A DNA stretch of 38,642 nt from Candidatus Omnitrophota bacterium (GTDB taxonomy: Bacteria > Omnitrophota > Gorgyraeia > Gygaellales > Profunditerraquicolaceae), in the NCBI GenBank assembly GCA_043802105.1, contig JAZDLL010000031.1, positions 1 to 38,642 on the forward strand, written 5' to 3'. The notes under the pieces are model-generated. The model made no database searches. It saw only the letters and a program-made list of their open reading frames with translations, and had not been told where the DNA came from. A program made the position numbers and the translations under genes. Shown in pieces: positions 2,778 through 35,316 of the stretch. Numbering within the stretch: the first letter of the stretch is position 1; every line of letters begins with the position of its first letter.

Positions 2778-3394
2778 TTTTAGAAACAGTTAATGTCGGG
2801 CCGATGCAGGTTAATTGCTATATTCTGGCCTCTGCTGCGGGCGGCCAGGCGATGATTATTGATCCGGGTGATGATCTGCTCAAGATCAAGGCGGTTTTAG
2901 ATAAGCACAGGTTAAAGCCGGCGATGGTGATCAATACGCATGGGCATTATGACCATATTGGTAGCGATGATGAATTTGGTGTTTGCGTTTATGTGCATAA
3001 AAAAGATTTACCGATGTTACTGGACGCCAGAAAAAATCTTTCCGCTAGTTTTTCTTTGGCTTATAAGGTTAGTTCTGAGACTAAAACTTTACAAGATAAA
3101 GAGATTATTAAACTAGATGGTTTGGAATTGGAAGTGCTACATCTACCCGGGCATACCCCGGGAGGCATCGGCCTTTTGATGAAAAAACCTCAAAACGATA
3201 TCGTTTTTACCGGCGATACCTTGTTTTGCATGGGGGTAGGGCGTTGGGATCTATCGGGGGGCAGCCAGCAGCAGCTGGAGGAGGCCATCCGGGAAAGATT
3301 ATTTGTTCTGCCGGTGGCAACCAAAGTTTATCCGGGGCACGGAACCTCGACCACTATCGGAAGGGAAAAGAGCGGTAGCACATTTAGATTATAA
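2774..3394 (+). CDS. MBL-fold metallo-hydrolase (glyoxalase II-like)
   Basis: THGHYDH, GHTPG, TGDTLF, PGHG motifs. Confidence 0.93.
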   Translation: MILETVNVGPMQVNCYILASAAGGQAMIIDPGDDLLKIKAVLDKHRLKPAMVINTHGHYDHIGSDDEFGVCVYVHKKDLPMLLDARKNLSASFSLAYKVSSETKTLQDKEIIKLDGLELEVLHLPGHTPGGIGLLMKKPQNDIVFTGDTLFCMGVGRWDLSGGSQQQLEEAIRERLFVLPVATKVYPGHGTSTTIGREKSGSTFRL

Positions 3395-4281
3395 TGAAAG
3401 AACTTATCGATTCATTCCTAGATTATCTTTCGGTTGAGCGGGCGCTGGCTAAAAATACCATTGTTGCCTATCGGGCGGATTTGAATCTTTATTTGGGTTT
3501 TATTGAAAAACGCAAGATTATTGTACTTTCTAAAGTCGCTAAAGATGATATTGTTGAATTTATGCTTGCTCAAAAAGCGCAAGGCATATCTCCTACGAGT
3601 ATTTCACGCCGCCTGGCCGCCATCCGTATGTTTCATCGTTTTTTAGCCAGGGAGAGAGTTTTAAAAAGCGATCCGACGACCTTGATCGATTCTCCCAGGC
3701 TTTGGAAGAAAGTTCCGGATACGCTTTCTTTAAATGAAGTGGAAGCATTAATCAGCCAGCCCGATTGGCGCGATCAGCAGGGGGCCAGGGATAAAGCGAT
3801 CATAGAAACTCTTTATGCCACCGGAATGCGGGTATCGGAACTGAGTAATCTTAAAACCAATAACGTTAATTTAGATATTGGGTTTTTGCGTTGCATCGGA
3901 AAAGGCAATAAGGAGCGGATTATTCCATTAGGCAAGAAAGCCATTCACAGTATTAATCGTTATTTGGAGTTTAGCCGGAAACATTTTTTAAAGCAAAAAG
4001 CCTCAGAGTTCATTTTTATCAGCCGCTGCGGGGGTAAACTCTCCCGGCAATCAGTTTGGAAATTGATTAAGCGGTATGCTAAAGAGGCTAAAATTAAGAA
4101 ATCGATAAAAGTGCATACGCTTAGGCATTCATTTGCTACGCATTTATTAGAGAGGGGCGCGGATCTGCGTTCCGTGCAAGAGATGTTGGGGCATTCCAAT
4201 ATCTCTACCACTCAGATTTATACGCATATTGATAAAGAGCGGCTTAAAACTATTCATAAGATGTTCCACCCGCGTCCCTAG
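3394..4281 (+). CDS. xerD: Site-specific tyrosine recombinase XerD
   Basis: LYATGMRVSEL, GKGNKER, HTLRHSFATHLL, LGH, TTQIYT, C-terminal HPR. Confidence 0.93.
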   Translation: MKELIDSFLDYLSVERALAKNTIVAYRADLNLYLGFIEKRKIIVLSKVAKDDIVEFMLAQKAQGISPTSISRRLAAIRMFHRFLARERVLKSDPTTLIDSPRLWKKVPDTLSLNEVEALISQPDWRDQQGARDKAIIETLYATGMRVSELSNLKTNNVNLDIGFLRCIGKGNKERIIPLGKKAIHSINRYLEFSRKHFLKQKASEFIFISRCGGKLSRQSVWKLIKRYAKEAKIKKSIKVHTLRHSFATHLLERGADLRSVQEMLGHSNISTTQIYTHIDKERLKTIHKMFHPRP

Positions 4282-23473: not shown

Positions 23474-23504
23474 AGTCCTGGCGAGCGAGCAGCGAGCAAG
23501 GGTT
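23474..23504 (-). repeat. Family A hairpin repeat, copy 1 (opposite orientation to the other three)
   Basis: Reverse complement AACCCTTGCTCGCTGCTCGCTCGCCAGGACT aligns with 31663-31693. Confidence 0.7.
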
Positions 23505-32652: not shown

Positions 32653-32707
32653 TAGTTCGCACATTGGCTTACGAGTACACAGTACGAGTAAGTCAATGTG
32701 TTCACTA
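32653..32707. repeat. Family B long hairpin, copy 1 (core inverted)
   Basis: TAGT-TC-GCACATTGGCTTAC-GA-GTAC-ACA-GTAC-GA-GTAAGTCAATGTGT-TC-ACTA. Confidence 0.8.
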
Positions 32708-32715
32708 AATTTCTC

Positions 32716-32743
32716 TTGATTTTTACCTAACTAATGTTATATT
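32716..32743 (+). promoter_or_regulatory. Putative sigma70 promoter
   Basis: TTGATT (32716-32721), 16 nt spacer containing TG, TATATT (32738-32743). Confidence 0.5.
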
Positions 32744-32774
32744 AATGGTTAAGAAACATACTAAAATTGTAAAA

Positions 32775-32805
32775 AAGATTCTTGCCCGCTGCGCGGCCAA
32801 GGACT
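32775..32805 (+). repeat. Family A hairpin repeat, copy 3
   Basis: AAGA TTCTTG-C-CCGC-TGC-GCGG-C-CAAGGA CT. Confidence 0.75.
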
Positions 32806-32830
32806 TCGCTGGATAAAAACTATAAGCTGC

Positions 32831-32890
32831 TTGATTTACGCATTAACTTACTCCCCACCTTCGGCGGATCGTAAGTTAAGCGTTCATTAA
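32831..32890 (+). repeat. Family B long hairpin, copy 2
   Basis: TTGAT-TT-ACGC-A-TTAACTTAC-TC-[CCCACCTTCGGCGGA]-TC-GTAAGTTAA-GCGT-TC-ATTAA. Confidence 0.85.
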
Positions 32891-32904
32891 TTAAAGGAGG
32901 CAAA

Positions 32905-33765
32905 ATGCATCGCAAAGGCTCAGTTATATTACCTGTCTTAATTGCATTATTTATTATTGCATTATCGGCCGGCGCCGGAGTATTTTATTTATATCAAAAA
33001 GAATATGCGCAAAATATTAAGCTTCAAGCGCAGATTGTGGAGTTGGAAGACCGCCAGCGCCAAACTACTACTCAGCTGGAAGAATCCAAGAAGGTGGCTA
33101 CGGATCTTGCCTTAAAATTACAAGAAGCTAAAAGTAGAATGGATTCTTTAGCCGGTGAGTTGGCTGCGGAGAAATCTGCCCACGCTGCCACTGCCAGCAA
33201 ATTAGAGCAGTTTAAAGATGATCTTGCCAATCAGAAAACATTGCGGGAGGATCTTGAGAGTAAACTGAATAAGGTTCAAGATGATAGCAAACAAATTAAA
33301 GAGCAAATAAAAATTATGCAACAGCAGAAGGTGGCGCTAGAGGAAAAGATTAAGAATCTGGAAGCCGGCGCCAGCGGGGTAGAGTTGGGTACGGTGGTGG
33401 TCAATCCTGAACTGCTCCCGACGGAAAAGGCGGCGGTGCAAGCTTTGCCTAAAACGGCTAATGATAAAACTAATGCCGCCGACACCAAGGCCTCCAAGGT
33501 TACTAAAAAAGAGCAGGCTCCTTTGGCCAAGGGTTTAGAAGGCAAAGTGATGATTGTGAATAAAGAATTTAATTTCGTGGTGATTAACTTGGGTAGCAAA
33601 GATAAAGTAAGCGTAGGAGATGAATTTTCAGTATCGCGCGCCGGTAAGCCGATCGGAGATTTAAAAATAGAGAAAGTCCATGAATTCATGTCTGCTGCGG
33701 GTTTTGCGCCTGAGCTAAAAGAGGCAATTAAAGAAAACGATAAGGTTACCCAAAAGATAAGGTGA
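32905..33765 (+). CDS. Hypothetical bitopic coiled-coil protein with C-terminal beta domain
   Basis: Strong RBS AAGGAGG; N-terminal TM, long heptad region, A/K/T-rich linker, C-terminal FVVINLGSKDKVSVGD domain. Confidence 0.85.
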   Translation: MHRKGSVILPVLIALFIIALSAGAGVFYLYQKEYAQNIKLQAQIVELEDRQRQTTTQLEESKKVATDLALKLQEAKSRMDSLAGELAAEKSAHAATASKLEQFKDDLANQKTLREDLESKLNKVQDDSKQIKEQIKIMQQQKVALEEKIKNLEAGASGVELGTVVVNPELLPTEKAAVQALPKTANDKTNAADTKASKVTKKEQAPLAKGLEGKVMIVNKEFNFVVINLGSKDKVSVGDEFSVSRAGKPIGDLKIEKVHEFMSAAGFAPELKEAIKENDKVTQKIR

Positions 33766-35126
33766 GCCGCATTAGAAAATTTTCTAATCGCTTAGCAGGA
33801 AAGTTTTCCCCTTCCCGTAAATCTATTTTAATTAAACGTAAATTTATTCCTCGCGGCTCAATCAGGCTGGCGGGGGATAAATCCATTGCCCACCGGGCGT
33901 TAATTTTAAGCGCTTTAAGCCGCGGTAAAACCATTCTTAAAAATTTTCCCATCCACGAGGATTCTTTGGCTACTTTAAATGCTTTAAGCGCTTTGGGAGT
34001 GATCATCCTGCGCCGCAAGGGCCAGGTTTCTGTTCAGGGCGCCGGCCTAGGAGGGTTAAGAGGATGCCGGCAGCCGATTTTTGTGAATAATTCCGGAACT
34101 ACCTTGCGTTTACTTTTAGGTGTTTTAGCGGGGATGGAATTTGAATCTAAGGTGGTGGCGGCTAAAGCTCTTAGTTCCCGACCCATGTCCAGAGTAAATG
34201 TGCCTTTACGTTTGATGGGTGCGCGGATTATCTCCAGAATTAAAGCTCACCAAGAGTATGCCCCGATAATGATAAGCGGAGGAAATCTTAAAGGCATTGT
34301 TTATCATCTAAAGATTGCTTCGGCTCAGGTAAAATCGGCGATTCTTTTGGCGGGGTTATTCGCCCGGGGTAAAACACAAGTTATCCAGCGGATAAGCACT
34401 CGCGATCATACTGAGCGGATGCTTAAAATTTTTGGCGCAAATATAGTTATCAGGAATAAAAGCATCATCTTGAATCCCAGTCGCAGCTTAACCAGCCCGG
34501 GTGAAATTTATATTCCCGGGGATATTTCCTCAGCGGCTTTTTTTATGGTCCTGGCGGCCATCATTCCCGGAGCCAGGGTTATTATTGAGCATTCTAGCCT
34601 TAATCCTACCCGCAGCGGAATAATTAGTGTGCTTAAAAGAATGCAGGCTGAAATAAAAGTTGCAGTTTCTAAACCCATAAATTTTGAGCCCAGAGGTGTC
34701 TTAACGATAAACAGCAGCAAGCTTAAAGGCACGGTAGTTTCGGCGGGCGAAATACCCTTTTTAGTTGATGAGTTGCCTATTTTGATGGTGGCTGCTTGTT
34801 TTGCTCAGGGCCGCACCGTAATTAAAGGGGTTGGCGAACTTAGGGTTAAGGAGACCGATAGGATTAATTCCATGGTGGTCAATTTAAGGAAGATGGAGGC
34901 GGATATCCGGGTCAACAAGGTTGCAGGCGTGGAAAATATAGTTATTCAAGGCCGGGGTAGACTTTACGGGGCTAAGCTTAAAAGTTTCGGAGATCATCGC
35001 ACGGCCATGAGTATGGTGATAGCGGCTCAAGCTGCCGATGGTGAATCTACTCTTGATGATATTAGTTGTGTTAGTAAATCTTTCCCCGGGTTTCTTGCGA
35101 CGTTGCAGAGCCTGGAAAGAGGGTAG
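33762..35126 (+). CDS. aroA: 3-phosphoshikimate 1-carboxyvinyltransferase (EPSP synthase)
   Basis: GDKSIAHR, NSGTTLR, RPM, SAQVKS, RDHTE, DELP, RVKETDR, GDHR, KSFP; GTG start overlaps upstream TGA. Confidence 0.96.
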   Translation: MSRIRKFSNRLAGKFSPSRKSILIKRKFIPRGSIRLAGDKSIAHRALILSALSRGKTILKNFPIHEDSLATLNALSALGVIILRRKGQVSVQGAGLGGLRGCRQPIFVNNSGTTLRLLLGVLAGMEFESKVVAAKALSSRPMSRVNVPLRLMGARIISRIKAHQEYAPIMISGGNLKGIVYHLKIASAQVKSAILLAGLFARGKTQVIQRISTRDHTERMLKIFGANIVIRNKSIILNPSRSLTSPGEIYIPGDISSAAFFMVLAAIIPGARVIIEHSSLNPTRSGIISVLKRMQAEIKVAVSKPINFEPRGVLTINSSKLKGTVVSAGEIPFLVDELPILMVAACFAQGRTVIKGVGELRVKETDRINSMVVNLRKMEADIRVNKVAGVENIVIQGRGRLYGAKLKSFGDHRTAMSMVIAAQAADGESTLDDISCVSKSFPGFLATLQSLERG

Positions 35127-35174
35127 TTAATGCATATATTCTATAATTGGCTAAAGATCCATAAATTGTGGGGA

Positions 35175-35204
35175 AAGATCCTTGACCGCTAAGCGGCAAG
35201 GATT
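35175..35204 (+). repeat. Family A hairpin repeat, copy 4
   Basis: AAG ATCCTTG-A-CCGC-TAA-GCGG-CAAGGAT T. Confidence 0.75.
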
Positions 35205-35280
35205 AGTTCGCGCATTAACTTACTCACACCAGCACCTGTCTATCGGCAGGTAGGTATTCGTAAGTTAAGCGCTCACTAAT
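35202..35280 (+). repeat. Family B long hairpin, copy 3
   Basis: ATTAGT-TC-GCGC-A-TTAACTTAC-TC-[ACACCAGCACCTGTCTATCGGCAGGTAGGTAT]-TC-GTAAGTTAA-GCGC-TC-ACTAAT; shares CGCATTAACTTACTC and TCGTAAGTTAAGCG exactly with copy 2. Confidence 0.85.
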
Positions 35281-35287
35281 ATTATAT

Positions 35288-35316
35288 TTGACAAAAAGTT
35301 TAATTTTTGTTAAAAT
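35288..35316 (+). promoter_or_regulatory. sigma70 promoter of mreBCD-mrdA
   Basis: TTGACA (35288-35293), 17 nt spacer, extended TG, TAAAAT (35311-35316); RBS AGGAGA before ATG 35346. Confidence 0.85.

Follow-up and report, generated by a model that had tools for sequence, protein, structure and literature searches.

The stretch of DNA analysed here, referred to as the window, is contig JAZDLL010000031.1 of a Candidatus Omnitrophota bacterium (assembly GCA_043802105.1) over its 38,642 nucleotides. Omnitrophota are abundant, uncultured bacteria with small genomes, and we know of no description of how their transcripts are organized. The genome carrying the window (G000) comprises 1.13 Mb in 120 contigs, of which the window is C84, and is 85% complete. 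There are 39 open reading frames (ORFs) in the window, all on the + strand and of housekeeping type, including the dcw cluster, ileS, lspA, lgt, rluD, aroA and mreBCD. As a preliminary description of this DNA had stated there is no transposase among them; the sole recombinase is XerC/D-like (3394-4278). Three copies of an imperfect hairpin, hereafter hairpin B, lie in the gene gaps downstream of rluD and aroA. We conclude that hairpin B is a real, apparently undescribed, palindromic repeat module that is found phylum-wide.

Hairpin B in the window

The preliminary description had placed three hairpins on the + strand and had given them a single layout. The sequence bears out the coordinates (Table 1), and folding bears out the layout, with a basal stem, a 2x2 internal loop, stems, a second 2x2 loop and an apical hairpin in each copy. 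The outer 2x2 loop is TC/TC in copies 1 and 3, and TT/TC in copy 2. It is followed by a 4-bp GC stem and then, on the 5′ side, by an A that is bulged in copies 2 and 3 and paired in copy 1. The outer stems ACGC/GCGT and GCGC/GCGC reported earlier are present, while copy 1 has GCAC(A)/(T)GTG(T). The 9-bp stem is TTGGCTTAC/GTAAGTCAA in copy 1 and TTAACTTAC/GTAAGTTAA in copies 2 and 3, and the inner 2x2 loop is GA/GA in copy 1 and TC/TC in the other two. Copies 2 and 3 have identical arms (CGCATTAACTTACTC...TCGTAAGTTAAGCG), as had been noticed. The three units are 55, 60 and 79 nt in length.

Z-scores for folding were computed against 200 shuffles, of which none, one and none folded as well as copies 1, 2 and 3 respectively. 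The pattern CTTAC-N(11-41)-GTAAGTYAA gives five strand-matches in the window, corresponding to three places, against 0.00 in 100 shuffles. A covariance model (R1), built from 12 copies in G000, matches each of the three with a low E-value (Table 1).

Each copy is close to a promoter or a translation start. Copy 1 is located 22 nt 3′ of the rluD stop codon and 9 nt 5′ of the −35 box of the next promoter. Copy 2 lies within the 5′ untranslated region (UTR) of the gene that follows, ending 2 nt 5′ of the Shine-Dalgarno sequence AAAGGAGG (32893-32900), with the ATG at 32905. Copy 3 is 76 nt 3′ of the aroA stop codon and 7 nt 5′ of the −35 box of the mreB promoter.

Table 1. Hairpin modules, linker and promoters between rluD and mreB. 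MFE, minimum free energy in kcal/mol; z, folding z-score.
Feature	Position	Strand	Details
Hairpin B copy 1	32653..32707	+	R1 46.4 bits, E 2.0e-8; MFE −27.6, z −6.83
Sigma-70-like promoter of coiled-coil gene	32716..32743	+	TTGATT-16-TATATT, TG-extended; conserved in relatives
Hairpin A module	32777..32805	+	GC-rich ATCC...GGAT type, TCTTGcCCGC-tgc-GCGGcCAAGGA
Linker module L	32806..32830	+	TCGCTGGA-taaaaact-ATAAGCTGC
Hairpin B copy 2	32831..32890	+	R1 60.7 bits, E 2.3e-12; MFE −22.1, z −5.47
Hairpin A module	35177..35204	+	GATCCTTGaCCGC-taa-GCGGCAAGGAT; 3′ strand overlaps first basal-stem bases of B copy 3
Hairpin B copy 3	35202..35280	+	R1 58.5 bits, E 9.7e-12; MFE −34.4, z −8.55
Sigma-70-like mreB promoter	35288..35316	+	TTGACA-17-TAAAAT, 11/12; conserved in relatives

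We use A, A2, L and C for other modules that accompany hairpin B, and B′ for an inverted B. Related genomes are labelled G004-G040, and extracted loci carry the letter L with a number. The linker L in the window is related to TTCGCTAGA...AAGGTGCTCAA in four other G000 copies.

Pairing, modules and spread of the family

The family unit reads T-N-A-R-T / TC / 4-bp GC stem / bulge / NNNN-CTTAY / 2x2 loop / tip / 2x2 loop / RTAAG-NNNN / 4-bp stem / TC / A-Y-T-N-A. It is an imperfect hairpin of at least 55 nt, reaching about 230 nt where tips are nested. The 5-bp AT basal stem and the 4-bp GC stem both covary, the bulge measures 1-2 nt, and the 9-bp stem has an invariant core, CTTAY/RTAAG. In C30, C41, C81 and C11 the bulge is expanded to an extra hairpin, generating a three-way junction. 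In 41 model matches (40 distinct) 98.1% of cells are paired, and 11 of the 16 pairs change on both sides (69 cells). None of 500 shuffles reached this level of pairing, and slid controls pair 18-44% of cells.

The immediate flanks are part of the same structure. Their consensus over 138 copies is GAT(T/A)AATTC ... TCATT(T/A)AA, and 102 of the 138 are perfect inverted complements, compared with 38.2 (standard deviation 4.7) when partners are shuffled. The flank pairs include TTAA/TTAA (41), TAAA/TTTA (41), TCAA/TTGA (10) and TAAG/CTTA (8). Because inverted complements predominate, we take the flanks to be a covarying stem rather than a target duplication.

The apical modules had been described as mutually unrelated, and as short palindromes that are captured or swapped at the tip. 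They are not unique to the window, since each tip is a recurrent type common to several genomes; capture and exchange are correct in substance, in that tips contain nested, tandem or flipped palindromes. Three types are seen: short ACAC/GTGT or GTAC/GTAC stems as in copy 1; CCGCC-loop-GGCGG, of which copy 2 is a variant; and a nested CCTGCC...GGCAGG palindrome (type C), located at 35235-35250 in the tip of copy 3 and found also in L045, L047, L057, L099, L250 and L253. Palindrome C is free-standing at three other places in G000. In several contigs of one metagenome-assembled genome (MAG) a two-hairpin unit is present in the tip once, twice or four times in tandem, and in another copy it is reversed. 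The tip of copy 1 is itself flipped relative to the family norm, as its inner loop indicates; a GA/GA loop is the expected product of flipping the segment between inverted arms.

Hairpin B is mostly preceded, with no linker, by the GC-rich hairpin A (ATCC...GGAT), and sometimes by A plus linker L. A and B are modules in their own right: the yajC-secD gap of G020 is that of G017 with A inserted exactly 5′ of B, and in the ffh-rpsP gap G022 has B alone. Units thus occur singly, as A-B doublets or as inverted B′-A-B triplets, the window itself containing only solo B and A-B. Head-to-head B′-spacer-B pairs in which the spacer contains a hairpin were found at 12 of 80 phylum-wide loci. From a stop codon the composites run through B′, A and B to the start codon. 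Where a copy is reversed, the TCA that ends the element provides the upstream gene with its TGA (or TAA) stop; forward copies have an ATG or Shine-Dalgarno sequence within a few bases 3′ of B.

Some further arrangements of these modules were observed. Three tandem units of A2 hairpin plus linker L are present 3′ of rluD in L225 (G019), directly 5′ of the −35 box of the coiled-coil gene, and a single A2+L unit occupies the equivalent place in G015, G022, G008 and G020. The ftsQ-ftsA gap of the window (23476-23503) contains a small hairpin, TCCTGGC-GA-GCGAGCAGC-GA-GCAAGGG, that looks like a reversed A2 module (ATCCTTGC-TC-...-TC-GCAAGGAT), with GA/GA replacing TC/TC. Composites of more than 150 nt (upstream module + A + B) are repeated nearly letter for letter before two adjacent genes in L066 and L067 (one contig, 680 nt apart) and in L106 (209 nt apart), which suggests that blocks are copied whole inside a genome. 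Over its first 141 bases C34 matches the beginning of C30, in reverse, at 100% identity (G000:C34:1-141, G000:C30:1-141), consistent with the assembly breaking at a repeated sequence. The repeat thus also has a bearing on assembly, since contigs break at such repeats.

The family is large, and widespread. Strict arms find four more copies in G000, and relaxed but complementary arms find many more that covary (ACAACTTAC/GTAAGTTGT, ATAACTTAT/ATAAGTTAT and CAGACTTAC/GTCTG-type). R1 gives 31 strand-matches in G000, and there are at least 26 distinct copies over at least 17 contigs when pattern-found three-way-junction variants are added. R1 matches 32 of 41 related genomes, among them 23 of the 24 that belong to the genus, and the matched genomes represent 9 of 16 genera, with 1-45 matches per genome; these counts are lower bounds, 137 candidates having been scored in each genome. 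The related genomes with no match are G012, G025, G026, G029, G033, G034, G036, G038 and G040. In a phylum sample of 151 genomes from 111 genera R1 matched at least 71 genomes and at least 51 genera, a lower bound with 37 candidates scored per genome. These searches with arms and covariance model, proposed in the preliminary description, have therefore found many more copies, and bear out its suggestion of a multi-copy, non-autonomous family.

The 19-letter left arm was also used for an exact scan of one species-representative genome collection (596 Gb). At least 119 stretches matched, and among the 80 loci listed 63 were labelled Candidatus Omnitrophota or Omnitrophica. Nine matches labelled as other phyla lack the right arm and look like chance; by our own arithmetic a few tens of chance matches are expected for an arm of this length in 596 Gb. 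There was no exact match to the arm motif in viral contigs.

The preliminary description did not recognize hairpin B as a described element, and our searches agree. There is no match in the window to Rfam at the gathering threshold, and when the region and six loci were scanned permissively all matches were sub-threshold and at chance level (BMV3_UPD-PK3 at 20.3 against 36 bits, mir-590 at 23.8 against 65 and SPRY4-IT1_2 at 18.5 against 40). The full-text literature searched, from which subscription journals and supplements fell outside, held no description of such repeats in Omnitrophota or Omnitrophica.

Turnover, mobilizer candidates and the level of action

Comparison of orthologous gaps, which had been suggested as a search for empty sites, shows that they are filled or empty among congeners, as for repetitive extragenic palindromes (REPs). 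At each gap examined, a few genomes carry the element and most lack it. In the aroA-mreB gap B is found in G000 and G011 only (2 of 28 loci); in eight genus members the stop codon is followed at once by the −35 box, and G017 and G024 have a different, GGGGACGGTTC-type hairpin. The gap between rluD and the promoter is filled at the same junction in G000 and G017 (A+B), with different interiors, while G012 retains both junctions with no hairpin. It is empty in G024, G018 and G004, with the rluD stop inside the −35 box. The 5′ UTR of the coiled-coil gene contains B in G000 and G024; among the 21 other genus loci listed, at least 10 were judged by eye to be empty here. With R1 at E≤0.05, just two of 29 other rluD loci (L212-L240) match, those of G017 (5′ of the promoter) and G024 (at the 5′ UTR site). 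The ffh-rpsP gap has A+L+B in G000, A+B in G014 and B in G022, and measures 33-49 nt in eleven genus members. Here G022 equals G008 with a clean 56-nt insertion between GGTTAA and GAAAGG. B is present upstream of queA in none of 13 relatives, at the C34:2802 site in none of five informative relatives, and in the yajC-secD gap in 2 of 28. Other palindromic modules fill the same gaps in other genomes; these gaps are therefore hot spots and the element is locally dispensable.

Insertion may alter the adjoining genes. At G000:C34:2775-2862 (L277) a reversed B plus A replaces some ten codons at the end of the upstream ORF, which takes its TGA stop from the insertion, and a new TTTTAAGGAG follows the insertion before the next gene. 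We note also that in several relatives (L214, L215 and L218) the rluD stop TGA lies within the −35 hexamer TTGATT of the next promoter, an unusually tight overlap.

Sites that are filled in one congener and empty in another would also be expected of a MITE (miniature inverted-repeat transposable element), where the hairpin arms are terminal inverted repeats and TA or TTAA is the duplicated target. The G022 insertion has TTAA on both sides, and B′-A-B composites end in inverted TTAAATGAG...CTCATTTAA. Against this, the 4-nt flanks are directly identical in 41 of 138 copies, and in each of these they read TTAA, which is self-complementary; inverted complementarity is found in 102. Target-site duplication is rejected, as the flanks are the covarying basal stem. 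No arm pair enclosing a gene was seen, viral contigs have no match, and searches of G000 (85% complete) for Y1 (PF01797), TnpB (PF01385), DDE_3 (PF13358) and DDE_Tnp_1 (PF01609) found none. We regard a MITE as very improbable indeed.

The preliminary description had raised a link to HUH-type genes, that is REP-associated tyrosine transposases (RAYTs) or IS200-type transposases, and this was not supported. R1 gave no match at E≤1 in 24 + 6 Y1_Tnp loci with 1.5-kb flanks. Y1 (HUH) transposase genes are present in 33 of 41 related genomes (1-12 per genome), and closed genomes with B have three and five. B and Y1 occur together in 27 of the 41, B only in five, Y1 only in six and neither in three, so there is no clear association, and the comparison is phylogenetically confounded. 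The Y1_Tnp genes are flanked instead by GGGGAC-type inverted repeats. A second type of repeat besides A and B, forming GGGGACGGTTC...GAACCGTCCCC hairpins, flanks RAYT-like Y1 genes (L160-L180, L182, L183 and L283), and hairpins of this type also fill the aroA-mreB gap (G017 and G024) and the queA gap (G012). This resembles a classical pairing of RAYT and REP that exists alongside the A/B mosaic.

ORFs make up about 93% of the G000 genome, yet none of its 26 copies lies within one. The genes flanking these copies are same/same in 16 cases, opposite/opposite in six and otherwise disposed in four; in the other genomes 59 of 127 are same/same and 11 same/opposite. For copies with an ORF on both sides, sense outnumbers antisense by 16 to 6 in G000 and by 59 to 3 elsewhere. 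Within 10 kb of each of the 26 copies 87-100% of ORF length is on one strand, with a GC skew of about ±0.15, and the overall coding-strand skew is 0.137. Because ORF strand and GC skew coincide, orientation to transcription is inseparable from orientation to replication. Orientation was accordingly rejected as evidence of a role in RNA, since every copy is surrounded, over at least 10 kb, by genes and skew of a single direction.

Three more specific functions were considered and set aside. Terminator prediction flagged none of the three copies in the window, and the 3′ flank is TCATT(T/A)AA, so that they do not resemble intrinsic terminators. A terminator role was rejected on this ground, and because copy 2 lies between a promoter and its gene and many others lie between a promoter or upstream gene and a start codon. 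Cleavage of RNase E type in a single-stranded A-B linker was dropped because A and B abut without one. A sigma-54 or otherwise unusual promoter in module L was dropped because the spacings, examined by eye, do not fit.

In the yajC-secD gap, an ACAGGAG-type Shine-Dalgarno sequence precedes secD at most of the loci listed. In L243 (G017) and L254 (G020) B ends in TCATTAAA directly 5′ of the secD ATG, with no Shine-Dalgarno sequence.

The preliminary description had left a REP/REPIN- or MITE-like family and a structured non-coding RNA as alternatives (REPIN, a REP doublet forming a hairpin). Its REP/REPIN part agrees with the behaviour of hairpin B. A classical MITE is disfavoured by the basal stem and lack of target duplication, and a plain non-coding RNA is weakened by the base pairing. 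RNA that is selected for its structure normally tolerates G·U far better than A·C, and comparing the two provides a simple separator of DNA-level palindromes from RNA structures. The 1,807 pairs of 139 parsed copies comprise 1,786 Watson-Crick, 10 G·U and 11 A·C. In 93 distinct phylum-wide copies (1,486 pairs) there are 1,466 Watson-Crick, seven G·U, nine A·C and four others. In combination there are 17 G·U against 20 A·C in about 3,290 pairs, and thus no RNA-type wobble signature. The equal rarity of the two fits a constraint on a DNA hairpin, or the re-use of copies in both orientations. Folding energies do not decide between the strands. For B the reverse strand is slightly the more stable, with a mean of −24.7 against −22.8 kcal/mol. 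The strands of hairpin A are equal in energy (−20.73 and −20.75 kcal/mol). In hairpin A G·U is commoner on the forward strand (118/1,406 against 59/1,271), much of which is suspected to come from one conserved closing G·T, itself uncounted.

We favour the interpretation of hairpin B as a DNA repeat module resembling REPs, REPINs and bacterial interspersed mosaic elements (BIMEs), co-transcribed with its neighbours and moved by a putative mobilizer, and we put its probability at roughly 0.55. Copies would be made and lost as DNA by a process that recognizes the folded hairpin and leaves no target duplication. The agent could be a hairpin-specific enzyme (HUH-type or other) acting on single-stranded DNA, or there could be copying or recombination between modules. 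The strict Watson-Crick pairing and the conserved letters of loops, bulge and core would then reflect recognition at the level of DNA. Copies would survive only in gene gaps, where they are co-transcribed and may be tolerated, or may bring a slight benefit as stable hairpins in the mRNA between cistrons.

A number of observations weigh against this interpretation. No mobilizing gene is linked, B being absent from the 30 Y1_Tnp loci, and G000, G004, G027, G028 and G032 have B with no Y1_Tnp match. Only one fully clean solo-B insertion junction was found. Copies in the same genome share arms and differ in tips with no sign of a recent burst, and a copy number of tens per genome is below that of classical REPs. 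The 19-nt arm is letter-identical in many distant MAGs, which would be unexpected of selfish DNA under drift and suggests a factor or function conserved in the hosts. Lastly, several copies stand in place of the Shine-Dalgarno sequence, directly before the ATG of highly expressed genes such as fusA, infA, rpsJ, rpsL and rplB, which hints at a role in RNA or translation.

The main rival takes up these last points. Hairpin B would be a cis-acting RNA element of polycistronic mRNAs that punctuates gene boundaries, A and B acting as processing or stability signals (a site for a double-strand-specific RNase, or a stem-loop protecting a 5′ or 3′ end) or as a platform for translation starts, and spreading between gaps by recombination only. 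The CTCATT side of copies directly adjoins a start codon or Shine-Dalgarno sequence, and reversed copies adjoin stop codons; copy 2 is inside a 5′ UTR, and the secD genes of G017 and G020 have B in place of the usual ACAGGAG. Strong covariation is combined with conserved unpaired letters, the arm sequence is kept across the phylum, and copies are mostly sense to the flanking ORFs. A hairpin of about two helical turns would also suit a double-strand RNase, by analogy with RNase III and with its sites in T7. Yet G·U does not exceed A·C in frequency, as it would in a typical structured RNA, folding is slightly more stable for the reverse strand, and no Rfam family matches. The sense bias is confounded by the one-way ORFs and GC skew, and the element is dispensable at every orthologous gap examined. 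Moreover a single transcript can contain B in both orientations, and flipped tips are seen, so the letters of the loops are not fixed in the RNA. We consider an RNA element possible, but not probable.

Conservation of the arm letters across the phylum and strictly Watson-Crick pairing might alternatively indicate a DNA site for a conserved host protein, bound as single-stranded or cruciform DNA. This could be an attC-like recombinase site, or a BIME-like site for a nucleoid protein or topoisomerase. The basal stem, unpaired spacer, extrahelical base and variable terminal structure may have parallels in folded attC sites, and a XerC/D-like recombinase is encoded in the window, though this is a universal housekeeping gene. 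However, the flanks are core housekeeping genes over many contigs with no cassette array, neither a binding protein nor an integrase is linked, and the element is dispensable at orthologous gaps. A host-protein site is therefore quite improbable.

A further idea, which we think unlikely and which is by nature speculative, is that the A and B hairpins might form a gene-boundary system specific to the phylum and recognized by a conserved Omnitrophota factor. The hairpins would then be portable cassettes marking the end of one cistron and the beginning of the next. They would bring stop codons and, immediately 3′ of the stem, starts that need no Shine-Dalgarno sequence, much as tRNAs punctuate the transcripts of mitochondria. 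They might perhaps also be points of single-strand recombination at which intergenic cassettes are exchanged.

The repeat family fills a large share of the scarce non-coding DNA of these bacteria and is part of the way in which their genomes are built, with one 19-nt arm kept throughout the phylum and with stop codons and start-codon contexts supplied by its copies.

Comparison with known repeat systems

Several groups of bacterial repeats resemble hairpin B in part. BOX of pneumococcus, Correia elements of Neisseria and the Rickettsia palindromic elements are confined to a genus or species and are at least 100 bp long, and Correia has a TA duplication. Compared by description rather than sequence, they share with B a modular build, stable transcript hairpins and insertion next to or into gene ends, where they can supply stop codons or alter a 5′ UTR. 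B differs from them in being phylum-wide and in having no TA duplication. Palindrome-associated elements derived from IS200/IS605 are likewise hairpin-dependent, lack target duplication and have a strand-tied orientation, as B has in a genome of almost uniform gene direction, but B has no definable target tetranucleotide (on its left lies GGGAT of A, GCTCA of L, or TTAA) and no linked TnpA. Integron attC sites are not a good parallel for the location of B, which is flanked by rluD, aroA, mreB, rpsP, queA, hisF and secD over at least 17 contigs; an integrase was not specifically searched for.

A close comparison is with the REPs of Proteobacteria. In PMC3733652 these are described as palindromes of 20-40 bp with an unpaired GTAG or CGTC tag, mostly 3′ of genes between same-direction or convergent ORFs, with RAYT genes flanked by GTAG repeats or by unrelated inverted repeats. 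Classical REPs exceed 100 copies per genome, according to PMC2817692. B is larger, at 55 nt or more against 20-40 bp, and less numerous, with tens rather than more than 100 copies. Its flanks are paired, with neither a GTAG nor a CGTC tag in 138 copies. It has two conserved 2x2 TC/TC loops, a bulge and tips in which palindromes are nested, keeps one arm sequence across the whole phylum, and flanks no RAYT gene.

REPINs and BIMEs consist of inverted units with a spacer (PMC3337134, PMC2817692), and REPINs are mobilized by RAYT transposases (PMC3116915, PMC3337134). The B′-A-B composites, found at 12 of 80 loci, have this inverted arrangement. Like REPINs they have two inverted units with a spacer, are non-autonomous, lack target duplication and occur in a group in which Y1 genes are present in 33 of 41 genomes. 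They differ in that the two B units usually belong to different subfamilies and each folds alone, that the spacer is itself a hairpin module, that none of 30 Y1 loci carries B, and that five genomes have B with no Y1 match.

In other respects B resembles REPs and BIMEs. It is a small imperfect palindrome present in many copies, it lies in gene gaps mostly between same-direction genes with which it would be co-transcribed, the location described for REPs, and it joins other motifs in mosaics in which some units alternate in orientation (B′-A-B). REP-like repeats with no adjoining RAYT gene, such as these, bear on the question of what mobilizes and maintains such palindromes.

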